NCBI GenBank assembly: GCA_963717935.1
Contig: CAVQXP010000001.1
Span: forward strand, 160,001-224,000
Length of the DNA stretch: 64,000 nt
Reading direction: 5' to 3'
Source of the DNA: Candidatus Eiseniibacteriota bacterium
Lineage (GTDB): Bacteria; Eisenbacteria; RBG-16-71-46
Shown here: piece after piece, positions 2,075-57,600 of the stretch
Position numbering within the stretch: position 1 is the first letter of the stretch
Layout of the letters: the number at the start of each line of letters is the position of its first letter
Translations under genes and position numbers: made by a program
Notes under the pieces: generated by a model
Told to the model about the DNA's origin: nothing
The model's input: the letters and a program-made list of their open reading frames with translations, nothing else
Database searches by the model: none

Positions 2075-2080
2075 CCCGTT

Positions 2081-2119
2081 CCATCGCCACGCGGTCACAC
2101 CGTGGCCGCGTGGCGGTGG
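2081..2119 (+). other. Intergenic hairpin between pepF paralogs
   Basis: CCATCGCCACGCGGTCAC-acc-GTGGCCGCGTGGCGGTGG, 18-bp stem with G-U pairs, no U tract. Confidence 0.5.
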
Positions 2120-2147
2120 CTCCAGACCGCCCCGCAAGGAGAACCGC

Positions 2148-4037
2148 ATGAAGCTCGACCGTCGTCTGCTCCTCCCCTTCGCCGTCGCGACGGGGATGCT
2201 CCTCGCCGTCCCGGTCTCCGCCACCGAGCGCGCCGACGTCCCGGACAAGTACAAGTGGCGGACCACGGACCTCTACCCGACCGAGCAGGCCTGGTCCGAC
2301 GCCCGGGCCGACATCGCCGCGCGCATCCCGAGGCTGGCCGGGTTCCAGGGTCGCCTGGGCGAATCAGCCGACGTCTTCTACACCGCGCTCTCCAGTTACA
2401 TGGACCTCGACCGCGACCTGAACCGCCTGGGGGCCTACGCGAGCCTGCGCGCCGACGAGGACACGCGGGTGGCCCACATGCGCGAGCTGGACCAGACGGC
2501 GTCCGCGCTGGGAGTCCAGCTGGGCGAGGCCTCCTCGTACCTCTCGCCCGAGATCCTGGCGCTGGGGGCCGCGAAGGCATGGGCTTTCGTGGCCCAGGAC
2601 CGGCGCCTCGAGTCCTACCGCCCGTGGCTCGACGACGTCCTGCGCTACGAGGCGCACACGCTGAGCGCCGCCGAGGAGAAGGTGGCCTCGCAGTGCGAAC
2701 TCATGAGCGAGGGGCCCGGGCGCACCTACGGCATGTTCGCGGACGGTGACCTGCCGTTCCCCGAGGTCACACTCTCCACCGGCGAGAAGGTGCGCCTCGA
2801 CGGGGCGGGCTACGTCCTGCATCGCGCCTCCCAGAACCGGGACGACCGGTTCAAGGTGTTCGAGGCGTTCTGGACGGCCTACAAGCAGTTCGAGCGTACG
2901 ATCGGCACGACCCTGGACGCCCGCGTCAAGACGCGCGTCGCCTACCAGCGGGTCCACAAGTTCGACTCGTGCCTCGAGGACGCGCTCTTCGCATCCAACA
3001 TCCCGGTCGGCGTCTACCGGCAGCTCATCGCCGACGTGCACGCCAACCTGCCGACGCTGCACCGCTACCTGAGGCTGCGCCAGCGCATGATGGGCCTGGA
3101 CACCCTGCGCTACCAGGACCTCTACGCGCCCGTCATCAGGGAGGTGTCCCTGGCGTTCACGCCCGAGCAGGCCGTGGACCTGGTGCTCAAGGCGGTGGCC
3201 CCGCTCGGCCCCGGTTACGTGACCCCGCTCCAGAACGGGTTCGACGGCGGCTGGGTGGACTGGATGCCCTCGACGGGCAAGCGCTCGGGCGCGTACAACC
3301 TCGGCGTCTACGGCGCTCACCCCTACGAGCTGCTCAACTTCAACGGGGTGTACGACGACGTCGCGACGCTGGCCCACGAGGGCGGGCATTCGATGCACTC
3401 CCACCTCACCTCCGCGCACCAGCCCTACGTCACCTCCGGCTACAAGACCTTCGTGGCGGAGGTGGCTTCGACGCTGAACGAGAACCTCCTCTTCCACCAC
3501 ATGCTGAGCCGGACGAAGGACCGCGACACGCGCCTGTTCCTGCTGGGGAGCCGGCTGGACGACATGCGGGGGACCCTCTTCCGCCAGACCCTCTTCGCCG
3601 AGTTCGAGCTGAAGATCCACGAGCTGGCGGAGAAGGACCAGCCGCTCACCGGCGAGAAGCTGAGCGAGTTGTACCTGGGGCTGCTCCGGGAGTACTACGG
3701 GGACGCCGAGGGCGTGTGCAAGGTCTCCGACCTGCTGAGCGTCGAGTGGGCCTTCGTCTCGCAGTTCTGGACCCACGACTTCTACGTCTACCAGTACGCG
3801 ACGAGCATCGTGGGTTCCTCCTCGCTCGCGGCGAACATGCGCGCTGAGGCGGCGGCCAGGAAGCCCTCGACGAAGACGCGCGACGCCTACCTCAAGATGC
3901 TCTCGGCCGGCGGGAGCAAGTACCCCATCGACCTCCTGAAGGACGCGGGCGTGGACATGACGACGCCAGCGCCGTTCGCCGCGGCCATGCGGGAGATGAA
4001 CGGCATCATGGACGAGATGGAGAAGCTGCTGAAGTAG
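2148..4037 (+). CDS. pepF: Oligoendopeptidase F (M3B) with N-terminal signal peptide
   Basis: HEGGH motif, GKRSGAY, FYVYQYATS; colinear with the 173..2074 paralog; AAGGAG RBS. Confidence 0.93.
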   Translation: MKLDRRLLLPFAVATGMLLAVPVSATERADVPDKYKWRTTDLYPTEQAWSDARADIAARIPRLAGFQGRLGESADVFYTALSSYMDLDRDLNRLGAYASLRADEDTRVAHMRELDQTASALGVQLGEASSYLSPEILALGAAKAWAFVAQDRRLESYRPWLDDVLRYEAHTLSAAEEKVASQCELMSEGPGRTYGMFADGDLPFPEVTLSTGEKVRLDGAGYVLHRASQNRDDRFKVFEAFWTAYKQFERTIGTTLDARVKTRVAYQRVHKFDSCLEDALFASNIPVGVYRQLIADVHANLPTLHRYLRLRQRMMGLDTLRYQDLYAPVIREVSLAFTPEQAVDLVLKAVAPLGPGYVTPLQNGFDGGWVDWMPSTGKRSGAYNLGVYGAHPYELLNFNGVYDDVATLAHEGGHSMHSHLTSAHQPYVTSGYKTFVAEVASTLNENLLFHHMLSRTKDRDTRLFLLGSRLDDMRGTLFRQTLFAEFELKIHELAEKDQPLTGEKLSELYLGLLREYYGDAEGVCKVSDLLSVEWAFVSQFWTHDFYVYQYATSIVGSSSLAANMRAEAAARKPSTKTRDAYLKMLSAGGSKYPIDLLKDAGVDMTTPAPFAAAMREMNGIMDEMEKLLK

Positions 4038-4450: not shown

Positions 4451-4580
4451 GACGCCCCTTCCGCCCGCCCGGGAGAAGCTCACCCGGGCGAACGGCTCCA
4501 GTACTACACCCCGTTCGGGCCGGACACCGCCCTGGACCACCAGCGCCCCCGAAGAGCCTCCGAGCGGCGGTCCAGGGCCT

Positions 4581-6118
4581 CTACCAGGACGTCGCCAGCG
4601 CTCCGACCTCCGCCTGCACGGCCTCCAGCACGTCGCAGCGCTCGACCGCGGCCCTCATGGCGTTGTGGTCCGGGAACAGCGGCCGGTCCACGTCGAGGTG
4701 CTCGACCACCTTGCGCACCGCGGCCTGTGCCGGCGCGCGTGCCCCGGCCCGGGGTGAACTCGCGGAAGTCGAGGGCCTGCGCCGCGGCGATCAGCTCGAT
4801 GGCCAGCACGCCGTGGGCGTTCTGGAGGATCTGCTTCGCCTTGAGCGCGCCGTTCATGCCCATGCTGACGAAGTCCTCCTGGTCGGCCGCCGCCGGGATG
4901 GACTGGATGCACGACGGCGTGCTGAGGATGCGCTGCTCGACGATGAGCATGTCGGCGGTGTACTGGCTGAGCATGAGGCCCGAGAACATGCCGGCGCCCT
5001 TGGTGAGGAACGCGGGCAGCCCCACGCTCAGGGCCGGGTTCAGCAGCCGGTTGAGCCGGCGCTCCGAGAGCACCGAGACCATGGTGAGGCCCGGCCGCCA
5101 CCATGTCGAGCGGCAGACTGATCGGCGTGCCCTGGAAGTTCGCGCCGGTCAGCACGCGGCTTCTCGTCGCGCACGAAGATGGGGTTGTCGGCCACGCCGT
5201 TCAGCTCGATCTCGAACTGCTTGCGCGCGTAGGCCATGAGCGTCGCGCAGCGCGCCGATCACCTGCGGCGTCGAGCGCATCGAGTAGGCGTCCTGGACCT
5301 TGACCTTGAGCTTGCCGGTCACCAGGTCCGAGCCGTCCATCACGCGGCGCAGGTTGGCGGCGCACTTGACCGCGCCCGGGAAGCCGCGCAACTCGTGGAG
5401 CTTCGCCTGGTAGGGCTTCAGGTTGGCGAGCAGCGCCTCGAGCGTCATCGCGGCGGCGATCTCGGCCTGGGCGATCCAGCGCTCGGCGTCGTAGAGGAGC
5501 AGGCAGCCGATGCCGGTGATGAGGTTCGAGCCGTTGATGGCCGCCAGCCCGTCGCGGGCCTGGAGCCCGGGCACCGGGATCCCGGCGCGCGTCCATGGCG
5601 TCCTTCGTGGGCATGCGCTCGCCCTGGTAGAAGCTCTCGCCCTCGCCCATCAGGCTCAGGGCGATCTGGCTCATCGGCGCGAGGTCGCCGCAGGCGCCGA
5701 CGCTGCCCTTCTCGCACACCACCGGGGTCACGCCGCGGTTCAGCATCTCGACGTAGGTGAGGGTGATCTCGGGACGGCAGCCGGAGTAGCCGCGCGCGTG
5801 CACGTTGATGCGGCTCGTCATGGCGGCGCGCACGTGCTCGATCGGGCAGGGCTCGCCGATGCCCGCGGCGTGGTTGTAGATCAGGTAGCGCTGGAACTGC
5901 TGCACCTGCTCGTCGTTGAGCACCACCTCGGAGAACTCGCCGATGCCGGTGTTGACGCCGTACATGATCTCGCGGGCCTGGATCTTCTCCTCGAGCATGC
6001 CGCGGCAGGCGCGGATGCGCTCCACCGCCTCGGGGGCCAGCGCCACGGGCTCGCCCTGGCGGGCCACCCGCACCACGTCCTCGATCGTCAGGCTGCTGCC
6101 ATCCAGTCTCACGGCCAT
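4581..6118 (-). CDS. hutH: MIO-dependent aromatic amino acid ammonia-lyase (histidine ammonia-lyase family), split by several indels
   Basis: [55 protein letters not shown] motifs spread over ORFs 5201..6154, 5149..5574, 5040..5237 and 4504..5082; substrate not certain. Confidence 0.85.
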
Positions 6119-6245
6119 GGAGATCTCCTCGGAGGTCGGGCCATCGGGGAGCAAGAATCCGCGGGAGACTACACCAACCGCGGCGCCCTGTCCGGCGCCG
6201 GGCGGCGGTCACCGCCGATTCGCCTATCGACTACGCCCTTGGTAG

Positions 6246-9280
<3,035 letters not shown>

Positions 9281-15556: not shown

Positions 15557-15732
15557 GATGGTTCCTCCCCGACCGGCCGATGCGCTGCGATGCGTGCGGG
15601 AAGCAGTATAGCGAAGGCTCACCGCACCGGTCCAACCACCGCGGCGGCAGGGCCGGGGACACGCGGGCGCGTGCTATGCTGGGTCCGCTTCCCGTTCGGA
15701 TCCGGCCCGTCCATCCCACCCGGAGGAATGCC

Positions 15733-16852
15733 ATGCGCGACCCGCGCAACGCCCGGCTGGCCCAGGTCATCGTCCACCATTCGACGCGGCTCCAGCCCGG
15801 CGAGGCCATCCTCATCGAGGCCTTCGACCTGCAGGACGGGCTCGTGCACGACCTGGTGGAGGAGGCCTGCCGCGCGGGGGGTGTCCCGCTCGTCCAGCTC
15901 CGCACCAACCCGGTCATCCGCCAGGTGCTCGTCAGCGGCAGCGAGGCACAGATCCGCCTGCAGGCCGAGGTCGAGCTCTTCCAGATGAAGAAGGTGCAGG
16001 CCTACGTGGGGTTGCGCGCCTCGGACAACGTCTCCGAACTCGGCGACGTGCCGCGCCGGGCAGCTCAAGCTCTACACCCGGCTCCTGCAGCAGCCGGTCC
16101 ATCTCGACTGGCGCGTGAACCACACCAAGTGGGTGGTGCTGCGCTACCCCACGGCCGCGATGGCCCAGCTCGCGGGCATGAGCACCGAGCAGTTCGAGGA
16201 GTTCTTCTACCGCGTGTGCACCCTCGACTACGGCCGCATGGCCGAGGCCATCGTGCCGCTCGCGGAGCGCATGAGGCGCACCGACCAGGTGCGCCTCACC
16301 GGCCCGGGCACCGACCTGCGCTTCCGCATCCAGGGGATGGGGGTGGTGCCGTGCGAGGGCCGGCGGAACCTCCCCGACGGCGAGTGCTACACGGCCCCGC
16401 TGCGCGACTCGGTCGAGGGCACGATCACCTACAACACGCCCTCGCTCTACCTCGGCACCACCTATGGCGGGCTCTCGTTCACGTTCGAAGGCGGCCGCAT
16501 CGTGCGGGCCACGGGCGATCCCCAGGACAAGCTGGACGCGCTGCTCGACACCGACGAGGGGGCGCGCTTCGTGGGCGAGTTCTCGCTGGGCTTCAACCCC
16601 TTCATCCTGCACCCCATGAAGGACACGCTCTTCGACGAGAAGATCGCGGGCTCGCTCCACCTCACGCCGGGGCAGGCGTACAAGGCCGCGGACAACGGCA
16701 ACCAGTCGCAGATCCACTGGGACCTGGTGCTCATCCAGCGGCCCGAGTACGGCGGCGGCGAGATCTGGTTCGACGGGGAACTCGTCCGCAAGGACGGCCG
16801 CTTCGTGGCGCCCGAGCTGGAGAACCTGAACCCCGAGAGGCTCGGGGCGTAG
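15733..16852 (+). CDS. Aminopeptidase, M29 (AmpS/PepS-like) family; one frameshift near 16060
   Basis: [66 protein letters not shown]. Confidence 0.9.
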
Positions 16853-20863: not shown

Positions 20864-21496
20864 ATGGCCGACGTGACCCTGCGCTCCTACGTCTTTCTCG
20901 ACGACCTGCAGCCCCAGCTCGCCGCCTTCATCGGCACGACCGCCCGGGGGTTCCTGCCCGTCGCCGGCGTGGCCTCGCTGTTCATCGAGACCGCGCCGGG
21001 GCTCATCATCAACCGGCTCATGGACGTGGCCCTCAAGGCCACGAGCTGCACGCCCGCCATCATGGTGGTGGAGCGCGCCTTCGGCATGCTCGAGCTCCAC
21101 GACTGGGACAAAGGCCAGGTGCAGACCGGCGGGCAGGCCGTGCTGGACTACCTGAAGCTCGAGGAGCACGACCGCATGACGCCGCGGGTGGTCTCGGACC
21201 ACATCATCCGCTCGGTGGAGCCCTACCATGCGCAGCTGATCAACAAGATCCGCTACGGTGATCAGTTGCTCTCGGGCGAGTCGCTGCTCATCCTCGAGAC
21301 CGAGCCCGCCGCCTACATCGCCTTCGCCGCGAACCAGGCCCTGAAGGCCGCGCACGTGAAGCTCATCGACGCGCAGCTCTTCGGCGCCTACGGCCGCCTC
21401 TACCTGTCGGGCCCCGAGGCCGAAGTCGACGCCGCGCGCGACGGAGCCCTGCGCGGGCTCGAGACCATCAAGGGCAGGGATGCGCCGAAGGGCTGA
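20864..21496 (+). CDS. Bacterial microcompartment shell protein, tandem permuted BMC-T (CcmP/CsoS1D/BMC-Tdp type)
   Basis: LRSYVFLDDLQPQLA, IETAPG, VVERAFGMLELH, LETEPAAY..AANQALKAA, FGAYGRLYLSG. Confidence 0.9.
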   Translation: MADVTLRSYVFLDDLQPQLAAFIGTTARGFLPVAGVASLFIETAPGLIINRLMDVALKATSCTPAIMVVERAFGMLELHDWDKGQVQTGGQAVLDYLKLEEHDRMTPRVVSDHIIRSVEPYHAQLINKIRYGDQLLSGESLLILETEPAAYIAFAANQALKAAHVKLIDAQLFGAYGRLYLSGPEAEVDAARDGALRGLETIKGRDAPKG

Positions 21497-21593
21497 CGGG
21501 CCTTGACTCCTCCGAGATCCGTCTCGGACGGCCTACCTGCGGGCGACCCCCGCCAAAGCACGGCAAGGACACGGAGCGTCGAACCTGCGGACC

Positions 21594-21649
21594 CCCTCTG
21601 AGCGCCAGTGGCGCTGGTGCGGAGCCGGGTGCGCGTTACCAACAGAGGG
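21594..21649 (+). promoter_or_regulatory. Candidate RBS-sequestering structured leader of DUF485-actP
   Basis: CCCTCTG (21594-21600) pairs with CAGAGGG (21643-21649, includes the RBS) and encloses two hairpins. Confidence 0.4.
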
Positions 21650-21657
21650 AACACACG

Positions 21658-21927
21658 ATGGCTGGACTGGACTTCAAGACCCCCGTGGCCAGAGAGCAGG
21701 AGGACACGGCGGTCGTCGCGCACAACACGCGCATGGGCGTGATCCTGTTCGTCGTGTACGTGCTGTTCTACGGAGGGTTCATGGCCCTGAGCGCCTTCTG
21801 GCCGGAGATCATGAGCAAGCCGTTCCTGCGCGGGGTGAACCTCGCCGTCGTGTACGGTTTCGCGCTGATCGTGGCCGCGCTCGTGCTGGCGCTGGTCTAC
21901 ATGAAGACCTGCCGCAAGTCGGCATAG
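21658..21927 (+). CDS. DUF485 (YjcH-like) small membrane partner of ActP
   Basis: Two TM helices, YVLFYGGFMALSAF, GVNLAVVYG; directly upstream of a sodium:solute symporter. Confidence 0.85.
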   Translation: MAGLDFKTPVAREQEDTAVVAHNTRMGVILFVVYVLFYGGFMALSAFWPEIMSKPFLRGVNLAVVYGFALIVAALVLALVYMKTCRKSA

Positions 21928-21937
21928 GGAGACCCCC

Positions 21938-23870
21938 ATGATTCACGCTACCTCCTGGATCGCCGTCCTGGTCTTCCTGTTCTTCGCCGGTGCCGTCCTG
22001 GCCATCAGCTTCTACCTGGGGGCCCGGGCCAAGTCGGCCAGCGGCTACTTCGCGGCCGGCGGCGGCATCCACTGGGCGGTCAACGGCATCGCGTTCGCCG
22101 GCGACTACCTCTCGGCGGCCTCGTTCCTCGGCATCTGCGGCATGATCGCCTTCTTCGGCTACGACGGTTTCCTGTATTCCATCGGTTATCTCGCCGGCTG
22201 GATCGTGGCGCTCTTCATCATCGCCGAGCCGCTCAAGCGGCTGGGCCGTTTCACGTTCGCCGACGCCCTCGACAACAAATTCAACTCCCGCGGCATCAAG
22301 CTGGCGGCGGCCATCAGCACGCTGGTGGTGAGCTGCTTCTACCTGATTCCGCAGATGGTCGGAGCCGGCGCGCTGGTGCAGCCGCTGCTGGGGTTCCCGC
22401 ACTACGTCGGGGTGATCGTGGTGGGCCTGATCGTGACCACGATCGTCACCACGGCGGGCATGGTCTCGACCACCTGGGTCCAGTTCATCAAGGGGACCAT
22501 CCTGGTGCTGTTGTGCGCGTTCATCACCGTGCTGCTCCTCATGCGGGGCGTGACCACGAAACCCACGGATGCCAACGGCAACGAGGTGCGCATCCTGAAG
22601 CGGGGCGTGCCGACCGCGGAAGTCATCGGCGCCCCGGGGGCCACCGTCCTGCCCGAGGAGGGCGCGTGGAAGGACAGGCCCTACCTGCGCGTCCAGACTC
22701 CGACGGGCGCCGTGTCCGTCTGGCACAAGGACGGCGACCTGCTGTCCGAGGCGCAGACCCTCACCGTGCGGAAGGACGGCAGGAAGCTCGTCAACGGATT
22801 GCCGCGGGGCAAGAACGAGGGCGAAGCAGACCTCGCGCCGGTGGGCTACGCCTCGAAGCTGCCGGGCGGGGTGGAGCGCACCGGGCCGCAGAGCCCGTTC
22901 GGGTTCCTGCGCACCATGCAGGAGAGCGAGGTCATCCTCTGGGGCTCGGAGAAGATCGCCGAGGCAGACGGCAGCGCCACGACGGTGTACTACCAGAAGC
23001 CCACCGCGGGCGCCGACTTCATGGCCCCCGGCTCCAGCCCGACGTTCAAGAAGGTCCGCAGCAAGAAGCTGTTCGACAAGCTCGACTTCCTGTCCCTCAT
23101 GCTCGCGCTCTTCTGCGGCACGGCGTCGCTGCCGCACATCCTGATCCGCTACTACACGGTCAAGGACCAGATCAGCGCCCGCAAGAGCACCGTGGTGGGC
23201 ATCGCGGCCATCGGGTTCTTCTACGTGCTGACGCTCTTCCTGGGCCTGGGCGCGATGACCAGCGGGAGCCTCGACGTCACCGACTCGAACATGTCCGCGC
23301 CGCTGCTGGCGCGCAGCCTGAACGAGCTCCTCTTCGCGGTGCTCTCGGCCGTGGCCTTCACCACGGTGCTGGGCACGGTCAGCGGCCTGATCATGGCCGC
23401 GAGCGGCGCGGTCGCCCATGACCTCATGACCAACTTCATGAAGATGAAGCTGGACGAGTTCCAGAAGGTGCGCGCCGCCAAGATCGCCGCCGTGTGCGTC
23501 GGTCTGCGTGGCGATCTGCCTGGGCATCCTGTTCGCCAAGATGAACGTCAACTTCCTGGTCGGCTGGGCCTTCAACATCGCCGCCTCGGCCAACCTGCCG
23601 GCGCTCGTCATGCTCCTCTTCTGGAAACGCACGACCAAGCAGGGCATCACGGCCGCCATCGTGGTGGGCATGATCTCCTCGCTGGCCTGGATCCTCCTGA
23701 GCGCACAGGCCTACAAGGACGTGTACGGGCTGGATCCGGCGCTGGCCATCGTGCCCTTCAGCCAGCCGGCGATCGTCACCATCCCGCTGGGCTTCCTGGT
23801 CCTGGTCCTCGTCTCACTGATGACGCCGCGCCCGGAGGAGCCGAGCAGGGCCGTGCCCAGTCCAGCCTGA
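21938..23870 (+). CDS. actP: Cation/acetate symporter (SSS family); one frameshift near 23505
   Basis: NGIAFAGDYLSAASFLG, YLIPQMVGAG, GMVSTTWVQFIKG, GTASLPHILIRYYTV, AFNIAASANLP. Confidence 0.9.
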
Positions 23871-23928
23871 CGTTCGCCTCAGGGCGGAGGCGCAGACACT
23901 CCCTCCCGGGAGGATTTCACAGCGGGGA

Positions 23929-23966
23929 TCGCACGGGCGTTTCGTCCCACGGAAACGCCCGTGCGA
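23929..23966. terminator. Hairpin between convergent actP and phosphoesterase
   Basis: TCGCACGGGCGTTTC-loop-GAAACGCCCGTGCGA, perfect 15-bp stem. Confidence 0.65.
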
Positions 23967-24097
23967 GGAGCGCGTGGGCGCCGGCTCCCTCGCTGCCCGG
24001 CACCGGTCGCCATCTCCGCGGCGGGCATGTTCAGGCCGACAGCGTGCCCCCGAGCACCATCACGGCCACCGTCTCGCGGGCTGCGCGGGGTGGGGGC

Positions 24098-24922
24098 TCA
24101 GCGGGCCCCATCGACCTGCACATCCCCCGCGACATCCGGCGCGCTCGGATCGGCGGGGCACAGCAGGAGCTTCTTCTCCTCGGTATCCCAGATCACGAGG
24201 GTACGAAGGGGCGAGTCGAGGTCGTCGCTGACGCACACGAAGCGGGTGCCTTCCACGGTGGCCTGGTGCGCGCGATGGAAATGGCCGAAGACCCAGGCCC
24301 GCGGCTTGTAGGCGAGATCGAGCCACAGCCAGCCCAGTTCCACCTCACCGCAGTCATCCTCCGGCCCGGGATCGAAGCCCACCGCCGTGATGTGCTCCGC
24401 GACGCCGGGCTGCATCTCGGCAGAGCTCCGGATCCCGATGCCGATCCGCGAAGGGCAGGAATGAGTGACGATGAGTTCGGGCCGCTCGCGGTTGAACAAC
24501 GCGGCGGCGTGTTCCCGCTGGCGGCGCAGGATGTAGTTGGGGAAGCCGCTGAACAGGTTGTGCCGCTGGGGCCGGTCCACGTGCAGGGCGCCGCCCAGGA
24601 AACCGACTCTGGAGCCGCCGAAGACGGCCACGGACGGGCGCGGCTGATAGATGAGATTGCTCTCCTTCTGCCAGCTCCTCGCCATGCCGAGCAGGAGCGC
24701 GCGGCGCAGCCACGGATGATCCTCGTGGTTGCCGTCGATGACGTGCAGCGGGACGGGGTAGCGGAGTCGCTCCTCGCGGGCCTGCATCATCAGGTCCCGG
24801 TAGAACCCGAAGTCGCCCACCTGGATCGCGGCCGCGATCCTGAAGTCGGTCTGGGCCTGCCGCAGGCCCTCGACCACCTTCCGGTGCTGGCCATGCACGT
24901 CGCCGACGATCAGGACACGCAT
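24098..24922 (-). CDS. Calcineurin-like metallophosphoesterase
   Basis: All five motifs: GDVHG, GDFG, GNHE, THSCP, GHFH. Confidence 0.9.
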   Translation of the reverse strand: MRVLIVGDVHGQHRKVVEGLRQAQTDFRIAAAIQVGDFGFYRDLMMQAREERLRYPVPLHVIDGNHEDHPWLRRALLLGMARSWQKESNLIYQPRPSVAVFGGSRVGFLGGALHVDRPQRHNLFSGFPNYILRRQREHAAALFNRERPELIVTHSCPSRIGIGIRSSAEMQPGVAEHITAVGFDPGPEDDCGEVELGWLWLDLAYKPRAWVFGHFHRAHQATVEGTRFVCVSDDLDSPLRTLVIWDTEEKKLLLCPADPSAPDVAGDVQVDGAR

Positions 24923-24926
24923 GCGC

Positions 24927-27470
24927 TCAGGCGGTCCGGGCGAAGTCCGTCTGCAGACGAGCCTGGAAGACGGTGATGTCCGCGAAGACCTTCTTCAGCA
25001 CCGAGCGCTCGAGATGGGTCAACTCCTGCAGCTCGATGAAGTTGTCCGGCTCGGCGCCCCGACCGATCTGCGCGGCCTGGTGCGTGAGCCGCATCTGCAT
25101 CAGGGCGGTGTAGGCCTGCGCCAGCTCGTCGTGGCTGGAGGGCAGCAGCAGGCCCTGGTCGCGCAGCCGGCGCAGCCGCTCGATGGTGTTGGTCTCCGCG
25201 AAGCGGTTCTGCAAGGCATACATCCGCGCGAAGTTCACCAGCGGGATGATCGCCGCCTTCACGTTGAACGCCGCCGGATGCTCAGCCGGACGATTCGAGC
25301 TGGATGTTCCCGAAGAACCCGCGCGGGGCCCTGAACTGCAGCGTGCTCTGCGCCAGGTGGAAGAAGAAGGAGTTCTTGTCCTCGCCTTCCAGCAGGTGGT
25401 GCAGGTGCTCTCGCAGCTGCCGCACGTACTCGGCCTCCCCGTACGCGCAACGAAAGTCGAAGAACACGTTCACGTCCAGCAGGTCCTGGGGCCGGGCCGC
25501 GGTCACGCACTCGGTGAAATACCGCCGCCATCGCGACAGGGGCTGGCACCATTTCTCGGTTGCAGGCCATGACCTCGCCCTTGCAGCGCCGGTAGCCGAC
25601 GAGATCCAGCCAGCCGCACACCTTTTCGCCGAGCCGCAGGAAATGGGCCTGCACCGCCTCGTTCTCTTCCGGAGCGACGTCGGCGTAGATGATGGCGTTG
25701 TCCTGGTCGGTGGCCAGGGTCTGTTCCTCCCGCGCCTCGCTGCCCAGGACCACAAAGGCGAACGCGGCCGGCGGCGGTCCGAGTTCGGCCTCGGCCAGCG
25801 CGATCAGCCGCACCAGGATCGCGTCCGACACCGTCGTCATGATCCGGGTGACGCTTTCCACCCGCGCGCCGCTTTCCAGCAGCGCCTTGACGAACACCGG
25901 CAGCTTGGCGCGGCTGTCGCGCAACTCCTCGGGCGACCGGGCCTCCTGGATCTCACCGAGCAGAGCGCCGATCGCGTGGCGCTGCGTGTGGAGGATCTCC
26001 GTGCCCGTGAGGATCCCGCGCGTGGCGCCGCGTTCGTCGGTCACGACCAGGTGCTGCACGCTCCGCTCCTGCATGACGCGCGCGGCTTCGAACAGCAGGG
26101 CGCGGTCCTCGATGCGGACCAGAGGGGCGCTCATGACGGTGGCGACGGGCTCGGTCGCGGGCCGCCCCGCCGCCAGCACCCGGTTGCGCAGATCCTGGTC
26201 GGTCACGATGCCGATCGGCTCCCCGGCGGGGGACTGGACGAGGATGGCGCTGGACTTCGCCCGAGCCATGGCGACGGCGGCCTTGTGGATCGGCGTGTCC
26301 AGGTCACAGGTGGCCAGCGTCAGCGGTGAGGCCTTGATGGACCGCGTGGCCAGCGGCAGCATGCTCTGCAGATCGGCCACCAGGCGGGCGAGGGTCTCCT
26401 CGGTCTTCTTGCGGGCCGCGACGTCCTTGACGGACAGGATCTGCCCCGCCTTGTCACCGATCGTCACCGGGGCGGCTGTGAGCAGCACGTCCACGGCCTC
26501 GCCGTTGCTTGTTGAGGATCCTCGCGCGCCGTTCTGTCGCCGGCGCCGAGGGGTCGCCGTTGGGGACCGACTCCATGATCTTCTCCAACGGCACCTGGAC
26601 CAGTTCCTCCTCCGTGTAGCCCAGCCGGCCGAGCAGCGTCTTGTTCGCGTACACCGGGCGGTCCTGCAGCACCAGCAGGACCCCCTCGGTCGTCCCTTCC
26701 ACCAGCAACCGGTACTTCTCCTCCGATTCGCGCAGCGCCGTTTCCGCGCGCCAGCGCTGGCGCTCGAGGTTGAGTCCCTGCTGGGTGATGTAGGCCAGCA
26801 GCGCGGCGATGATGATGGAGATGCCCACCGAGATCTGAAGGACGCGGCGGATCATCTGGCTGATCTCAGCCCACACGTCTTCGAGGTAGATGCCGGTTCC
26901 CACGATCCAGCCCCAGGGCGCGAAGCCTTTCACGTAGGACAGCTTGGGCACCACGCGTTTCTCGTCGTCCTTCCATTGCCACAGGTAGTCCACGTAGCCG
27001 TCGCCCCTGGCCCGGACCACCTTGGTGAACTCGACGAACAGCCTCTTCCCCGCCGGATCGGAATACTCGAGGAGACTCTGGCCGTTCAACTCCGGGCGGT
27101 AGGGATGCATGACCATGCACGTCTGCGTGTCGGAGATCCAGAAGTAGTCCTTGCCGTCATCCCCGTAGCGCATGTTCTGGATCCGGGCGATGGCGGCCTG
27201 CTGGGCCGCGGCCCGCGAGAGCGCACCCTGCCTTTCCTGTTCATGCAGGCCCGCCAACTCGCTCCAGGCGGCTTGCGTCAACTCGCGAATCATCTCCTTC
27301 TTCCGCTCGATGATGTTCTTCTTCATCGTCGGGATGATGACCACGAAGATCAGGCCGAAGAACAGCGCAAAGGTCAGAATGGCCGGCGAGATGATGTTGA
27401 CGGCGAAATGCCGCCAATGGGGCCGGGGCGGTTGCCGAAGGTCAGCGGTGGGCATGAGTGGGAACCACAC
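24927..27470 (-). CDS. TM-sCache-TM-PAS-CBS pair-DUF294 nucleotidyltransferase-DUF294_C fusion (three apparent indels near 26500, 25560, 25270)
   Basis: MRYG..DYFWI..MVMHP..KLSYV..WGWIVGTGIY (single Cache); YRLLVE..ANK PAS; GIVTDQDLRNRV CBS; LGSEAREEQTLATDQDNA NTase; CKGEVMA, FFDFR, KAAIIPLVNFARMYAL, TNTIERL. Confidence 0.85.
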
Positions 27471-27582
27471 TAAGGGCTCGCGGCCCGGCGGGCCAGCCTG
27501 CCGCCGGCGACGGCCGGCACAGGGCCCGCGCGCGGTCCGATCGCGGCCTGGCCGGACCCCGGGGGGCGACCTCGAGGATCGT

Positions 27583-27845: not shown

Positions 27846-28928
27846 TCAGAACACCACGTACGCCCCGTCGCGGATGACCAGTTGCCGCCCCGCCGGCCCC
27901 ACCACCACGGCCTCGGCCACCTGGATCGGGTTGCCCTTCGCATAGACGATGTCCTGGTGCACGACGTTCCCGGGTTCGAGGAACGCCTTCACGCCCACGA
28001 CGCCGCCCAGGTGGTCCGAGCGCCCGTAGGCCCAGTGGAAGCCGGCCTTCTCGTCCTCGAGGACGTTGCCGGTGACGACCGCCCAGTCGTTGCAGCCGAA
28101 GGCAACCTCCGCGATGTTGGCGCGGGCCGGATCGGCGGCAAAGAGGGCGCGCAACCGCTCGGCCTCGGGGCCGCGCCCGTCGATCTCCTGGATGCGATTG
28201 GCCCTCACCGACAGGACCACGCGCTCACCGGCGACCTCCACCGGCAAGTCGCCCTCGGTGCGGGACGCCTCGCCGGCCTTCTCGCCCTCGTAGGGCACGA
28301 TGAACGTCTCGCCCGAGGGCAGGTTGATGATCCGGTCTCCCTGCTTGTCGCGGGGCAGGTAGCCGTCGTCCACCTCGGCCTTGCGCCAGCGCAGGTCGAA
28401 GGAGCAGCGCTCGCCGGTGGAAAAGCGCACCTCCAGCCGGTCGGCGCCCTTCAGGGCCGCGTCCAGGATGCCGCAACGGCGGGCCACCTCGCCGTAGTCG
28501 GCCGACAGGGCGCTCTGCTCCATGCGCCGCTCCAGACCTGGCAGCGAGGCGGCGCGGAAGTCGGCCTTTCGGCGGCAGTAGCCGTCGAGCGCGGCGGTGG
28601 CGGAGAACTCGGTCAGGAAGAGCGCCAGCGTGCAGTCCAGGAGGGCCTCGTCCATCGAGACTCCCACGCCGGCCTGGCGGCCGGCTGCGGGCAGGTCGGC
28701 GCCGTTGGCGCCCGTGGCGGCAAAGGTCAACAGCGCGTGCGTCTCGAACCCCCCCGCGCGGCCCAACTCGGCGAACGCCTCACGCCACTCGGCGGCCATG
28801 GCGCGCCGGTCCATCCACTTGGAGTTGTCGGCGATGGAGCCGTGAGGCAGGTCGCAGGCCACCAGCACCACCTCGCCCGGCTCCGTGCGGAACACGTCAG
28901 TCAGCAGCTTCTTCAACTCGAAGGCCAT
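27846..28928 (-). CDS. M29-like aminopeptidase (thermophilic metalloprotease fold)
   Basis: NLPSGETFIVP, IAEVAFGCN, LEDEKAGFHWAYG, HQDIV. Confidence 0.75.
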   Translation of the reverse strand: MAFELKKLLTDVFRTEPGEVVLVACDLPHGSIADNSKWMDRRAMAAEWREAFAELGRAGGFETHALLTFAATGANGADLPAAGRQAGVGVSMDEALLDCTLALFLTEFSATAALDGYCRRKADFRAASLPGLERRMEQSALSADYGEVARRCGILDAALKGADRLEVRFSTGERCSFDLRWRKAEVDDGYLPRDKQGDRIINLPSGETFIVPYEGEKAGEASRTEGDLPVEVAGERVVLSVRANRIQEIDGRGPEAERLRALFAADPARANIAEVAFGCNDWAVVTGNVLEDEKAGFHWAYGRSDHLGGVVGVKAFLEPGNVVHQDIVYAKGNPIQVAEAVVVGPAGRQLVIRDGAYVVF

Positions 28929-29037: not shown

Positions 29038-29427
29038 TCATCCCGCCCCGCGGCTCATCATCACCAGCGCCGCGCCGGTGAAGTAGGCCACCACCCAGTA
29101 GGCGTAGGCGAGCCGCGAATAGAGGTGCAGGCGCTTCCCGAGCAACTCCGCGCCCGCGCCGAGCCGGTGGCGCCACATCAGGAACGTGTCGGTCGCCATG
29201 GCGGCCAGCGCCGAGTATCCCAGCGCGCCGTGCAGGCTCAGACCCTCGCGTTGCGTGGCGAGAATCATGAGCAGCGTGGCGGTCATGTCGAAGGCCACCC
29301 CTGCGCTGAAGGCACCGCACACGCCACGGGTGGCGCGGCGGGCACGCAACTCCTTCACCGCGCCGATGGTGTAGAGCACGAGCGCCGCGGTGACGGTGGT
29401 CACCGCGGCCATGCGCAGTGGCGTCAC
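29038..29427 (-). CDS. Small 4-TM membrane protein, HsmA/TIGR03987-like
   Basis: ALVLYTIG, GVAFDMTAT, SLHGALGYSAL, YWVVAYFTG. Confidence 0.65.
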   Translation of the reverse strand: MTPLRMAAVTTVTAALVLYTIGAVKELRARRATRGVCGAFSAGVAFDMTATLLMILATQREGLSLHGALGYSALAAMATDTFLMWRHRLGAGAELLGKRLHLYSRLAYAYWVVAYFTGAALVMMSRGAG

Positions 29428-29524: not shown

Positions 29525-30319
29525 CTACCACAGCTCCCCCTGCGGCCAGCGGTCCTTCGGATTCACCGTCGCCAGCCCCAGCCGCTTCTTCATCTCGTTC
29601 GCGCTCGCCGGCGAGTGGCCGGCCCAGTGGTTGTTGAAGTAACCGTAGACCTCGCGCACCTCGGGCAACGCACGCTTCAGATCCGCCTCCCACGCATCGA
29701 ACTCCGCCCTGCGGTCCACCTGGACCCGGTCATAGCACCCGATCTCGCGGCGGTCGCCGAGCCAGCGCACGTAGAGGAAATCGGCCGTGACCTCGGTCAG
29801 GCGCGACAGGTCGCGCCACTCGGTCCAGGTCAGCGCCGCGCGATGCCGGCGCAGCAGATCGCAGGTCTGCGCCACCTGCCAGGACGCGTGCCGGAACTCG
29901 ACCGCGAGCCGCACGTCGCGGGGTGCCGCCGCGAGGAAGCGGTCGAGCACGCCTACCGTGCCCTCGTCGCGCTCGAACTCGGCCGGCAACTGCACCAGCA
30001 GGGGCCCGAGCTTCTCCCCCAGCGGCGCCAGCGCCTCCATGAACTCCTTCAGGTGTTCGCCCATGCTCGAGAGCCGGGACTCGTGGGTGATGCGCTGCGG
30101 CACCTTGGCCGCGAAGCGGAAGCCCGCAGGCGAGTGCCGCTCCCAGGAACGCACCACCGACGGCCGCGGCGGATGGTAGAACGTGGTGTCCAGCTCGACC
30201 GTGTCGAAGACCGCGCCGTAGAAGGGCAGCCAGTCCTCCTGCTTCGCGCCCGGCGGATAGAAGGAGCCCACCCAGTCCGCATACGACCAGCCCTGGGTGC
30301 CGATGTGGATCGCCGCCAT
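29525..30319 (-). CDS. DUF72 domain protein
   Basis: IGTQGWSYADWVGSFYP, TVELDTTFY, KVPQRITH, AVEFRHASW, YFNNHWAG. Confidence 0.92.
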   Translation of the reverse strand: MAAIHIGTQGWSYADWVGSFYPPGAKQEDWLPFYGAVFDTVELDTTFYHPPRPSVVRSWERHSPAGFRFAAKVPQRITHESRLSSMGEHLKEFMEALAPLGEKLGPLLVQLPAEFERDEGTVGVLDRFLAAAPRDVRLAVEFRHASWQVAQTCDLLRRHRAALTWTEWRDLSRLTEVTADFLYVRWLGDRREIGCYDRVQVDRRAEFDAWEADLKRALPEVREVYGYFNNHWAGHSPASANEMKKRLGLATVNPKDRWPQGELW

Positions 30320-35858: not shown

Positions 35859-35936
35859 CAGCCAGCCCTGGCGCGCCGGAGCCGGCTCCGGCGCCGGCTC
35901 CGACCCGTTCTCCGTACGTCAGCCATGCCGGCCGCC

Positions 35937-36701
35937 CTACGCGGACTTCTTGTCCATCGAGGCCATGAAGACCTTGAGGAAGTCGATCGGCACCGGGAAG
36001 ATCGTGGTCGAGTTGTTCTCGGTCGCGATCGCCGCCAGCGTCTGCAGGTAGCGCAGCTGCAGCGCGGTCGGCTCCTTCGCCATCACGGTCGCCGCCTCGG
36101 TCAGCCGGGTGGCCGCCTGGTACTCGCCCTCGGCGTTGATGACCTTGGCGCGGCGCTCGCGCTCGGCCTCGGCCTGGCGCGCGATGGCGCGCTGCATCTC
36201 CTGCGGCAGGTCCACGTTCTTGACCTCGACCGTGGTGACCTTGACGCCCCAGGGCTCGGTCTGGCGGTCGATGACCTGCTGGAGCGCCGAGTTCAGCTTG
36301 TCGCGCTCGGAGAGCAGCTCGTCCAGCTCGGCCTGACCCAGGATCGAGCGCAGCGTGGTCTGGGCGATCTGCGAGGTGGCGTACAGGTAGTTCTCCACCT
36401 GCACCACCGCCTGCCTCGGGTCGATGACGCGGAAGTAGATCACGGCGTTCACCTTCACCGTGACGTTGTCCTTGGTGATGATGTCCTGCGACGGGACGTC
36501 CATCGTCACCGTGCGCAGGCCGACCTTGACGGGCCGGTCGATGAGCGGCCAGAGCAGCACCAGGCCGGGGCCCTTCTCGCCGATCAGCCGGCCCAGGCGG
36601 AACACGACCAGACGCTCGTACTCGCGCACGACACGGACCGCGTTCGCCAGGATGACGATCCCGAGGAACAGCAGGAACAGAAGGAAAGGTGCGAGAACCA
36701 T
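35937..36701 (-). CDS. Slipin/stomatin (SPFH) family protein
   Basis: [51 protein letters not shown]. Confidence 0.93.
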
Positions 36702-36703
36702 GT

Positions 36704-38148
36704 TCAGGCCTCCTTGGAGGGGCGCACGCGGAGGGTGAGCCCCTCGACGCCCGTGATGACCACTTCCGAACCCGTCTCCACGTTCGATTCGCTGCGTCGC
36801 ATTCCACAGCTCGCCGCTGATGCGCACCTGGCCTGCGGGCGCCAGACGGGCCACCACCACGGCCCGCATGCCCACCAGTCCCTTGCTTCCGGTCTCGACC
36901 CGGAGCCGCTGCGCGCGCAGGCCCTTGCCCACGATGAAGAGGAAGAAGACCGCCGTCGCGCCGGTGGCTCCGGCGATGATGGCCCCGGAGAGCCTCGCGC
37001 CCTCCCCGTGGAAGAGGATCATCGAGCCCAGCACGAGCGAGATGACGCCCCCGGTCGCGAGCAGACCGTGGCTCGCGACCTTCACCTCGGCGACGAAGAA
37101 CGCGATGGCCAGCACGATGAGCGCGACGCCGGCGTAGTTCACCGGCAAGGTCGAGAGCGCGAAGAAGGCGAGGATCAGGCAGATGCCACCCACCACACCC
37201 GGGCAGGATGGCACCGGGGTTCTGCAACTCGAAGAGCAGCCCGTAGAAGCCGAGCAGCATGAGGATGTAGGCCACGTTGGGGTCCACCAGCACGCCCAGC
37301 AGCTTCTGCCGCAGCCCGGGCTTGAGGGTGTCGCGCGGCAGGCCCGAGAGCGCGAGCGTGGTCTCGAGGCCGAGGCGCGAGACGGCGACGCCATCGGCCT
37401 GTTCGAGCAGTTCGTCCAGCGAGCCGGCGACGAAGTCCACGACCCCGAGGTCCAGCGCCTCGTCCTCGCTCGCTGCCACCGCCCGGCGCACCGCCTCCTC
37501 GGCCCACTGCGCGTTGCGGCCGCGCTGCCGGGCGATGGTGCGCGCGAAGGCGGCCGCGTCGCTGGTGGCCTTGCGCGCCAGCGTCGAGTCCATGCCGCCC
37601 TGCACGTTCACGGGCGTGGCCGCGCCGATGTTCGTGCCCTGCGCCATCCCCGCCACGTCGGCCGCCATGACGATGAACACGCCGGCCGAGGCCGCCCGTG
37701 CGCCCGCGGGCGAGACGTAGGCGATGATCGGCACCTCCGAGACGAGCATCCTCTTGACCATGGCGCGCATGCTCGACTCGAGCCCCCCGGGGGTGTCGAG
37801 TTCGATCACCAGCGCCTTGTAGCCCTCGCGCTCGGCGCGGTCCACGGCGGTGCCCAGCGCCTCGGCCGAGACCGGCGAGATCGCGCCCTCGAGGCGCAGG
37901 ACGAGGATGCGTCCCGTCGTCGGCGTCTTCGCCAGGCGCTCCTGCCGGCGCGCCTCCACGGACGGGCTCTGCGCCGCGCGCGCGCGGGGCGCGCTGGCGA
38001 GCAGCAGACCCACTGCGGCGAACAGGACCAGCAGGACGCTGAGCGCACCCAGGACCAGGGGTGCCAGGGGTGCGCTGCGCCGGCGCGACCGGCGCAGCAC
38101 GCGGGCCGCCCGCGTGAAGGCCCGCACGCCGCGGGATCCGCTCTTCAT
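36704..38148 (-). CDS. nfeD: NfeD family membrane-bound serine protease (frameshifted)
   Basis: [53 protein letters not shown]; adjacent to slipin. Confidence 0.88.
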
Positions 38149-55575: not shown

Positions 55576-57487
<1,912 letters not shown>

Positions 57488-57600
57488 GGATTTCCTTCCT
57501 TCGTCGTGATGGACGGAGACCACGCCGGTCCTGGACACCCGCCGAACGGCGGGTCCGACCGGCGTGGCACGTCCGTGGGTGAACCGGGCCGCCCTTCCGG

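Follow-up and report, generated by a model that had tools for sequence, protein, structure and literature searches.

The window, a 64,000-nucleotide stretch of contig CAVQXP010000001.1 from a Candidatus Eiseniibacteriota assembly (GCA_963717935.1), contains a four-gene cassette that may link the import of acetate-like acids to a reversible nucleotidylation switch, a reading in which our confidence falls slightly short of even. The cassette comprises a receptor with a nucleotidyltransferase (NTase) output, an esterase, a DUF485 protein and an ActP-type symporter, and across 72 loci conservation around the receptor is limited to these four. As a whole, the interpretation proposed in the initial annotation is partly supported, and each part within reach of the present comparisons turned out as it had predicted.

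Extent, frame and family of the receptor gene

The receptor-nucleotidyltransferase gene lies on the minus strand (24927..27455) and encodes 841 codons plus a stop after three extra bases are skipped, as read from six-frame translation and from Pfam searches run on four separate minus-strand pieces of the receptor and esterase region. From the ATG at 27455 to the TGA at 24927 the gene measures 2529 nt, which minus 3 bases gives 842 codons including the stop. The start was previously placed at a GTG at 27470 and the length at about 850 aa; we correct these to the ATG at 27455 and 841 aa. The reading frame follows the path 0 to 1 to 2 to 0, with breaks near 26505 (within PAS), 25557 (within the DUF294 core) and 25284 (at the start of DUF294_C). 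Across the three sites the consensus of 20 intact homologues (set A1) reads K-x-G-E, N-x-K-W and S-G-E-H, so each break amounts to a single surplus base. In short-read contigs that four runs yielded for close relatives, exactly one base is absent at 25284, 25556/25557 and 26505; as these contigs come from relatives, they do not settle error versus mutation in this organism. Among sequencing runs compared with the source DNA, the best shared a fraction of 0.18 of its words. The single reading path through three indels, one of them in the PAS domain, that the initial annotation had drawn is thus upheld by Pfam, the six-frame read and the homologue consensus, and the joining of Cache-PAS and NTase parts in a single ORF is what the homologues display.

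In the single receptor protein, two membrane segments flank an sCache_2 domain, and the domain order on the minus strand (27455-24927) is TM-sCache_2-TM-PAS-CBS pair-DUF294-DUF294_C. A Kyte-Doolittle scan places the first hydrophobic segment at 27318..27410 (minus strand, residues ~16-46) and the second at 26772..26855 (minus strand, residues ~201-228). The PAS domain (26425..26720, minus strand) is split by the extra base at ~26505 and gives weak PAS_8/PAS_9 matches on the broken piece; the intact relative P0001 gives 50.4 bits for PAS_9. Directly ahead of the NTase sits the CBS pair (25985..26332, minus strand), detected by Pfam at 53 bits in two stretches (piece 25259-26494) and by CBS matches in the PDB.

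Assembly errors are the likeliest cause of the frame breaks, and the gene is consequently probably intact in the organism. At least nine further breaks affect seven more conserved genes in the window (HAL, malic enzyme, EamA, M29, actP, NfeD and dnaK), and 11 of 12 breaks, i.e. 8 of 9 elsewhere and all three in the receptor, shift the frame in the direction of a one-base insertion, which fits a systematic error process. Were the breaks real, receptor and actP would be recently inactivated pseudogenes, remnants of a transferred cassette. The cassette does look foreign to the lineage, its esterase having been found in this genome alone among 206 from the phylum, its GC content is 0.63-0.69 against 0.70-0.78 in the flanks, and three breaks per 2.5 kb exceed the window average of about one per 5 kb. 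Three extra bases aside, however, identity to intact homologues stands at 84-90% and there is no in-frame stop, dnaK and six other conserved genes are broken in the same manner, and the same pair is broken the same way in a metagenome-assembled locus (L035). We consider the pseudogene explanation improbable; the cassette itself was probably acquired horizontally.

Contrary to the first impression of an unusual architecture, the receptor belongs to a large family that is generically annotated in public records. A search with the Cache-PAS piece returned 3266 proteins at E<=1e-20. The best 120 of these are 63-90% identical and carry sCache_2, CBS, DUF294 and DUF294_C; 118 of the 120 measure 798-881 aa, with a mode of 841. 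The family is public and widespread but uncharacterised, and the gene in the window is ordinary for it.

Sensor and nucleotidyltransferase modules

The extracytoplasmic sCache_2 domain (26847..27311, minus strand; Pfam 140.9 bits against a cut-off of 25, piece 26454-27470) has its fold placed between the two membrane segments. Its PDB sequence matches are 4K08 (E 1e-37) and 5G4Y/5G4Z (E 3e-32). In the available text of PMC5062169, Tyr90, Trp92, His103, Phe126, Tyr143, Trp145 and Lys156 are given as the propionate contacts of PscD, and the same seven residues as identical in the acetate-binding Adeh_3718 and in McpP. All seven are identical in the window's domain by HMMER alignment and invariant in the A1 consensus set. 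By sequence, the pocket thus matches those of acetate/propionate-binding chemoreceptor domains residue for residue, and the outer part of the receptor should bind acetate-like acids. The carboxylate-sensing Cache domain suggested earlier is consistent with this predicted C2/C3-carboxylate sensor type. The likeness to PscD (5G4Y/5G4Z), Adeh_3718 (4K08) and McpP comprises the sCache_2 sequence and the contacts; their domains feed an MCP signalling domain, whereas that of the window has a nucleotidyltransferase output.

The output module consists of the DUF294 core (25480..25903, minus strand, with the extra base at ~25557) and DUF294_C, the HEPN-related helical domain of GlnE/DrrA-type enzymes (24930..25400, minus strand, extra base at 25284). 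DUF294 (PF03445) scores 129.3 bits against a cut-off of 21 on piece 25259-26494, and DUF294_C (PF10335) 111.3 bits against 22.5 on piece 24927-25262. A G-S-x10-D-x-D motif is read in the sequence at 25700-25744 (minus strand), and its residues G75, S76, D87 and D89 (G75-S76-x10-D87-x-D89) are invariant in 71 sequences. GlnE/DrrA-type protein adenylyltransferases combine a pol-beta NTase core and the motif G-x11-[DE]-x-[DE] with a helical substrate-binding domain; the module of the window contains this core, the helical domain and G-x11-D-x-D.

We modelled the DUF294 and DUF294_C module at a pLDDT of 92.2. Foldseek with this model returned GlnE-N (4e-8), GlnE-C (8e-8) and DrrA (8.5e-8), with the next match at 0.017. 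In VIA comparisons the two GlnE halves reached Z 27.2 and 26.2 and DrrA Z 25.3, over 308, 302 and 299 residues, and the next match Z 12. The GlnD/GlnE-like NTase with an intact GS...DxD motif that had been recognised at the outset is therefore recovered both as motif and, in the predicted structure, as GlnE/DrrA fold.

Two other assignments were weighed against this fold. HEPN and MNT chains match the NTase model only partially (Z 8.6-9.9 by VIA), and MNT-HEPN pairs are separate small proteins whereas the window's module has both parts fused in the manner of GlnE; because of the partial match and this fusion, an MNT-HEPN toxin-antitoxin reading was set aside. The R-x4-6-H RNase motif is given as not conserved in DUF294_C in Table 1 of PMC3710099, as far as the available text goes. 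The NTase might instead nucleotidylate a small molecule, as aminoglycoside nucleotidyltransferases do, possibly an imported metabolite that the esterase recycles. Behind GlnE and DrrA, the nearest structures are those of ANT(4'), AadA and AAD(9), and the cassette includes a transporter. Yet ANT and AadA reach only Z ~8, far under 25-27, Cache, PAS and CBS are sensors of signalling proteins rather than of a detoxifying enzyme, and no resistance context appears across the 72 loci. We hold this alternative to be very unlikely.

The hydrolase partner and the transporter genes

The metallophosphoesterase (24098..24922, minus strand, 274 aa; Pfam Metallophos 37.8 bits against a cut-off of 21.5) begins with an ATG at 24922, 4 nt past the receptor TGA (24929-24927), so that the coordinates bear out the spacing first noted. 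Calcineurin-like metallophosphoesterases bind their metals through the motifs D-x-H, G-D, G-N-H-[ED] and G-H-x-H. The esterase's metal-ligand columns D8, D37, N65, H66, H214 and H216 are invariant in 46 sequences, as are the motifs G36-D37, G64-N65-H66 and G213-H214-x-H216, and H10 is nearly so. The esterase model (pLDDT 85.2) has Dbr1 (Z 18.4), aq_1956 (17.7), GpdQ (16.9) and Rv0805 (15.4) as practically tied fold neighbours; a PDB sequence search with the esterase yielded nothing beyond Dbr1 at E 0.57. Of 22 loci at >=59% identity, 21 have an orthologous esterase directly downstream of the receptor, with a gap of 3-61 nt in 20 of the 21. In the reverse test, on metagenome loci with an esterase of >=48% identity and >=300 nt of upstream sequence, an NTase ends 6-205 nt ahead of the esterase in 44 of 45. 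The co-occurrence of receptor and phosphoesterase claimed earlier thus holds in both directions.

Across the 72 loci the partner is a Metallophos gene in 35, an N-terminal fused PHP domain in 18, an HD_5 gene in two and an RNase_T domain in one. The remaining 16 show no esterase; five of these end at a contig edge, and the gene seems absent outright from L030 and from a Bacteroidales clade with an upstream TPR protein. On the NTase tree the partner class switches at least seven times, other clades having a PHP domain, another metallophosphoesterase, an HD protein or an RNase_T gene in place of the esterase of the window. PHP is present in 90 of the best 120 relatives of one PHP-fused protein (from G033). 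Desulfosediminicola flagellatus (L041), the sole named strain in culture among the loci, has a variant with an HD partner, and no cultured member of the window's clade was found. Among the best 150 of 1769 esterase representatives at E<=0.001 there is no Cache-DUF294 fusion, and the longer matches P0472 and P0464 contain Metallophos alone. The description of the phosphoesterase as a replacement eraser is, on the sequences, consistent with its being replaced elsewhere by PHP, HD or RNase_T proteins.

These partners would fit a different product equally well. The NTase may make a nucleotide-derived signal or extend an RNA or oligonucleotide end, which the esterase then degrades or trims, like a cyclase/phosphodiesterase pair. 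All partner classes (RNase_T, PHP, Metallophos, HD_5) are known to cut nucleotide phosphodiesters, and the top esterase fold is Dbr1, a phosphodiesterase of RNA 2'-5' bonds; cyclic-nucleotide and glycerophospho-diesterases come next. These neighbours are nucleic-acid and small-molecule phosphodiesterases, not protein phosphatases. Removal of nucleotides from proteins is not known for RNase_T-type exonucleases. On the other hand, it is the protein adenylyltransferases GlnE and DrrA that match the whole two-domain module at Z 25-27, with the oligonucleotide synthase HalB at Z ~7 alongside ANT and AadA, and hydrolysis of Tyr/Thr-O-NMP would be the same chemistry as 5'-NMP release from a 3'-OH. 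A nucleotide or RNA product is in our view unlikely, with more in its favour than the small-molecule substrate.

On the plus strand, a DUF485 (YjcH-type) small membrane protein (21658..21927, Pfam), the only DUF485 in the genome, precedes the ActP-type SSF symporter (21938..23870, Pfam), which has one extra base at 23481-23506. As evidenced by tblastn with the ActP of a related locus (L017), the match runs at 83% identity in frame 2 and then on in frame 3; a Protein Atlas search with the ActP insert gave no usable match. The stops of esterase (24098) and actP (23870) face each other with 227 nt between them, confirming that the receptor-esterase pair converges on DUF485-actP. An SSF match occurs in 61 of the 72 loci and DUF485 in 43.

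Further out lie a BMC-like gene (20864-21496), an M29-like gene (27846-28928), a TM protein (29038-29427) and a DUF72 gene (29525-30319); a TPR membrane protein is also among the flanking genes. None is conserved beside the cassette in the 72 loci, where a single weak DUF72 match was found. Over 20-29 kb there was no promoter-like site, terminator-like sites numbered four against 2.4 expected, and Rfam returned one sub-threshold snoRNA match only. The genes of the relatives are covered by an RNA-library run (X19), which by itself does not show that they are transcribed.

Proposed mechanism and comparison with known systems

In the reversible nucleotidylation switch that we favour, an external C2/C3 carboxylate and an adenine-nucleotide signal received by the CBS pair would jointly switch the NTase, which would move AMP or UMP onto a protein hydroxyl, and the esterase would hydrolyse the resulting protein phosphodiester and release NMP. 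The most economical target would be either the ActP/DUF485 transporter, which is inherited along with the receptor, or the receptor, with acetyl-CoA synthetase next. Against this stand the partner set of DEDDh, PHP, Metallophos and HD proteins and the fold neighbours of the esterase, as set out above, as well as the 16 loci without a visible esterase. The literature searched holds no functional or biochemical datum on any DUF294 protein, and P. putida mutants deleted for the soluble homologue pair showed no more than weak phenotypes, according to the available part of that report. The stronger proposal, a class of transmembrane one-component receptors that set the reversible AMPylation or UMPylation of ActP/YjcH according to an external acetate-type ligand and adenylate state, with erasure by an interchangeable phosphodiesterase (Metallophos, PHP, HD or DEDDh), we regard as speculative and rather doubtful.

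If true, the output of this receptor class would be neither phosphorylation nor a cyclic nucleotide, and the long-orphan DUF294/COG2905 family would gain its first function. Should the writer/eraser model hold, bacterial transmembrane receptors would gain protein nucleotidylation as a further output, and there would be an explanation for how short-chain-acid uptake is controlled post-translationally. To the soluble form, the Cache-fused form adds a ligand that is predictable because the pocket is identical to those of acetate/propionate binders, a fixed four-gene context, and a hydrolase partner that has been exchanged in nature, the exchanges pointing to a phosphodiester as the common substrate. 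A single cassette offers ligand, enzyme, eraser and candidate target, making a defined experiment possible. For the window itself the message is smaller, namely an ordinary family gene, breaks that are probably errors and a cassette that was probably transferred.

The closest known relatives are soluble COG2905-type proteins (cNMP_binding-CBS-CBS-DUF294-DUF294_C). The available texts place DUF294/COG2905 proteins within the regulons for acetate in Pseudomonas and Vibrio, and describe the soluble cNMP-CBS-DUF294 protein and its exonuclease partner beside actP as an uncharacterised target of CrbS/R (MxtR/ErdR), so that this pairing, given as known in the initial annotation, is already in print. 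The targets named there are PP_0354/PP_0353 (P. putida/alloputida), Pflu5625 and the PA3232-PA3235 cluster, and the accessible portion of a September 2026 preprint still calls the function of DUF294/COG2905 unclear. Both forms share the CBS-DUF294-DUF294_C output module, the link to yjcH(DUF485)-actP and short-chain acids, and an operon hydrolase partner. Where the soluble proteins have a cNMP-binding domain, the window's has TM-sCache_2-TM-PAS and is a membrane receptor, and Pfam found no cNMP_binding match in it. Their partner is an RNase_T-like DEDDh exonuclease, that of the window a downstream Metallophos protein; an RNase_T partner occurs in 1 of the 72 related loci. On the NTase tree, three soluble copies adjoining Cache-type genes (L047, L052 and L053) form the outgroup to the Cache-type clade.

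Within the membrane form, PHP-fused members (PHP-TM-sCache_2-TM-PAS-PAS-CBS-DUF294-DUF294_C, ~1190-1240 aa, e.g. the G033 and G003 copies) are the sister clade of the window's clade on the same tree. They have the same receptor and NTase, with a Cache part that is 48-52% identical, and the same actP neighbourhood, but carry their esterase as a PHP domain fused at the N-terminus plus a second PAS, both of which the window's protein lacks.

With GlnE/GlnD the window's protein shares the fold of NTase and helical domain (Z 27.2 and 26.2 to the GlnE halves), the G-x11-D-x-D motif and, as proposed here, a writer/eraser logic. GlnD carries its own HD hydrolase, whereas the eraser of the window would be a separate or differently folded esterase; identity is ~13-15%, the sensor domains differ and the nitrogen-regulation context is missing here. 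DrrA/SidM, the Legionella AMPylase of Rab1/Rab8, matches the fold over 299 residues (6YX5, Z 25.3); it AMPylates proteins and has as its eraser a second protein, the de-AMPylase SidD. DrrA is secreted as an effector and also has GEF and lipid-binding domains, while the protein of the window is an integral membrane receptor without secretion context.

A single receptor gene with three frame breaks

Once three single bases are skipped, the minus strand encodes a single protein from 27455 to 24927, with a six-frame read following frames 0, 1, 2 and again 0. Pfam places sCache_2 (140.9 bits) and weak PAS matches on the piece at 26454-27470, a CBS pair (53 bits, two stretches) and DUF294 (129.3 bits) on the piece at 25259-26494, and DUF294_C (111.3 bits) on that at 24927-25262. 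On either side of the Cache domain lies a hydrophobic segment (residues 16-46 and 201-228). A 274-aa Metallophos gene assigned by Pfam (24098-24922), here called the esterase, starts 4 nt after the receptor stop. Its own stop is convergent with that of actP (21938-23870), which is paired with a DUF485 gene (21658-21927), and 227 nt separate the two stops. As Pfam domains, frame path, esterase spacing and the convergent DUF485-actP pair agree, the anatomy described in the initial annotation is right, save that the gene starts at ATG 27455 and not at GTG 27470.

Its reading as one ORF rather than separate genes is borne out by single-chain homologues. The Cache-PAS piece retrieved 3266 proteins at E<=1e-20; the best 120 of these are 63-90% identical and carry sCache_2, CBS, DUF294 and DUF294_C in one chain, and 118 of them measure 798-881 aa, most commonly 841. 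The consensus of 20 homologues is continuous across the three break points (K-x-G-E, N-x-K-W and S-G-E-H), thus each break is one extra base, and 2529 nt less 3 give exactly 841 codons plus stop. One base is also absent at 25284, 25556/25557 and 26505 in short-read contigs from four runs, which represent close relatives and not the source sample (the best run shares 0.18 of words).

By GC3 frame plot and Pfam scans, at least seven further conserved genes of the window are broken in this way, namely an aromatic amino-acid lyase, malic enzyme and an EamA transporter (the last two with two breaks each), an M29 peptidase, actP, NfeD and dnaK (broken stretches 4500-6210, 6580-8130, 8460-9280, 15700-16850, 23481-23506, 35900-37960 and 55580-57500). 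One-base insertion is the direction of 8 of the 9 breaks in these genes and of all three in the receptor. Because dnaK is broken and the insertion bias is one-sided, the frame breaks point to an error process; that the three breaks mark a real pseudogene is unlikely. Other broken genes of this genome should be suspected of assembly error first. The same receptor-esterase pair is frame-shifted in L035, a locus from another MAG, which looks like a similar assembly-quality problem.

Sensor domain and predicted nucleotidyltransferase

By sequence, the Cache domain matches the solved sCache_2 domains 4K08 (E 1e-37) and 5G4Y/5G4Z (E 3e-32). Passages of PMC5062169 list glycolate, acetate, propionate and pyruvate as ligands of the chemoreceptor sensor domain PscD, report acetate in the crystal of Adeh_3718 (4K08) and name Tyr90, Trp92, His103, Phe126, Tyr143, Trp145 and Lys156 as ligand contacts, identical in PscD, McpP and Adeh_3718. 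Alignment to the solved domains showed all seven to be identical in the window's Cache domain, and they form invariant columns in a 20-sequence family alignment. The small-carboxylate sensor proposed initially is therefore a prediction tested, and in agreement, at the level of the pocket.

The DUF294 part matched no solved structure by sequence. We modelled the last 345 residues of an intact homologue in locus L030 from a 71-sequence alignment (pLDDT 92.2); P0124, encoded by this locus, is 89% identical to the window's protein over the Cache-PAS piece. Foldseek returned four significant matches at 4e-8 to 1.5e-7, to the GlnE N-domain, the GlnE C-domain (two chains) and DrrA, the next being at 0.017. 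VIA-align superimposed the module on these protein adenylyltransferases with Z 27.2, 26.2 (both GlnE) and 25.3 over ~300 residues, the next matches having Z 12 and below. G-S-x10-D-x-D is invariant in the 71-sequence alignment and lies at 25700-25744 in the window. Modelled fold and intact motif mark the module as a GlnE/DrrA-type enzyme, consistent with the GlnD/GlnE-like domain first noted, and we infer nucleotidyltransferase activity. A published HEPN analysis places DUF294_C with GlnD/GlnE C-terminal domains.

Esterase linkage, partner exchange and cassette origin

The esterase keeps all metal-binding motifs. Its model (pLDDT 85.2) is closest in fold to phosphodiesterase-type metallophosphoesterases, with Dbr1 (Z 18.4), aq_1956 (17.7), GpdQ (16.9), purple acid phosphatase (16.5) and Rv0805 (15.4) nearest; as the top matches are practically tied, no subfamily is assigned. 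Its orthologues are free-standing, 251-277 aa long and annotated as 'metallophosphoesterase' or 'predicted phosphodiesterase'. At E<=1e-30 there are 58 cluster representatives, and the best 150 esterase representatives include no NTase fusion.

Among 72 loci drawn from species-representative genomes of many phyla, the orthologous esterase lies directly downstream in 21 of the 22 with at least 59% identity to the family, at 3-61 nt in the 20 loci measured. The one locus lacking it, L030, branches next to L016 inside the tree, so that its case reads as a loss. The co-occurrence also holds in reverse: a search of metagenome contigs with the esterase alignment gave 48 loci at >=48% identity, 45 of them with at least 300 nt upstream, and in 44 of these the NTase ends 6-205 nt before the esterase. 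Distant esterases (28-46%) have a DUF294 match in only 3 of 32 loci. The one exception among the 45, L133 (748-1554, 52% identity), is the only orthologue found without a receptor and neighbours SBP_bac_3, CDP-alcohol phosphatidyltransferase and uvrC.

In the remaining loci of the 72, a PHP domain is fused to the N-terminus in 18, a different Metallophos gene lies upstream, downstream or after actP in 14, and an HD_5 gene occurs in two and an RNase_T domain in one; 16 of the 72 have no visible esterase, five of these ending at a contig edge. The PHP fusion is directly visible in the relative G033, and PHP occurs in 90 of the 120 proteins that best match the G033 one. The NTase-module tree shows at least seven changes of esterase class, and one well-supported clade in it contains both HD-type and Metallophos-type partners.

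Two Desulfobulbales loci, from a cultured strain and a MAG (L041:5699-6865 and L044:5778-6944), have the gene for an HD_5 (HD-GYP-like) protein directly upstream of the receptor, one of the two with a GAF domain. In the loci most closely related to them, L034 and L038, a Metallophos gene lies downstream instead, a partner swap between close NTases. A Bacteroidales clade (L060, L065, L066, L069, L085) carries in the esterase's place an upstream TPR protein (ORFs ~255 aa) whose N-terminal 190 aa have no Pfam match, with no esterase within 2.6 kb.

Across the 72 loci SSF/actP occurs in 61, DUF485 in 43 and porins (DcaP-like, Porin_O_P) in nine; no further gene is conserved around the receptor. 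The window's ActP-type symporter has an insert of ~175 aa (22562-23086) between hydrophobic segments ending at residue 208 and starting at residue 384, which is absent from the short ActP of G033 and Ignavibacteria loci and has no Pfam or usable Atlas match. Directly upstream of DUF485, a 210-aa protein (20864-21496) has a weak BMC (microcompartment shell) match in its C-terminal part (E 4e-6); it is not conserved beside the cassette in the 72 loci.

The whole genome contains one DUF294 and one DUF485, both at this locus, and among 206 genomes from the phylum it is the only one in which the esterase was found. Searching 40 relatives with the Cache piece gave full matches only in G003 and G033, both of the PHP-fused type. 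GC is 0.63-0.69 across 21000-27500 and 0.70-0.78 beside it. On short branches, the clade to which the window's receptor belongs brings together records labelled Verrucomicrobiota, NC10, Acidobacteriota, Kiritimatiellia, Lentisphaeria and Planctomycetota. With the lower GC, and with the esterase found in none of the phylum's 205 other genomes, the simplest account is that the four-gene cassette was probably acquired horizontally. Elsewhere in the window, two full-length M3 oligopeptidase F genes stand in tandem (89-2071 and 2022-4034).

Proposed mechanism and known relatives

Domain order, membrane topology, ligand pocket and NTase fold and motif are established, as are an intact esterase, its tight reciprocal gene linkage and its non-homologous replacement. 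In the proposed mechanism, NTase activity would respond to an external C2/C3 carboxylate and to an adenine nucleotide bound by the CBS pair; the NTase would attach NMP to a protein hydroxyl and the esterase would take it off. Candidate targets are the receptor and the two transporter proteins, since these are the only co-inherited genes. Releasing 5'-NMP from a phosphodiester is an ability common to all partner folds, so that a rival in which the NTase makes a nucleotide product is less likely but plausible. The esterase's nearest folds and the DEDDh exonuclease that accompanies the soluble proteins speak for this rival; the match to protein AMPylases at Z 25-27 speaks for protein modification and its removal. 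The interpretation put forward in the initial annotation is supported at each point tested; at the biochemical level it is still a hypothesis, attractive and testable for an orphan family.

The receptor family is common and already in public records, the window's copy being error-laden. A whole-word search of a limited paper collection for DUF294, PF03445, DUF294_C and PF10335 found nothing on function or Cache fusion. Published studies describe a soluble cNMP-CBS-DUF294 protein with an RNase_T neighbour as CrbS/R (MxtR/ErdR) targets beside actP and acs, with PP_0354/PP_0353, Pflu5625 and the PA3232-PA3235 cluster as examples, and report weak mutant phenotypes and a function called unclear. 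In three Myxococcales-labelled loci (L047:5048-6913, L052:4455-6278, L053:5048-6976) a soluble CBS-DUF294 gene, with cNMP_binding detected in L052 only, adjoins a Cache-type gene, hence both forms coexist in one locus. Compared with the COG2905 NTase, the window's protein is a membrane form that its Cache domain would gate, and compared with the COG2905 system its esterase has been swapped.
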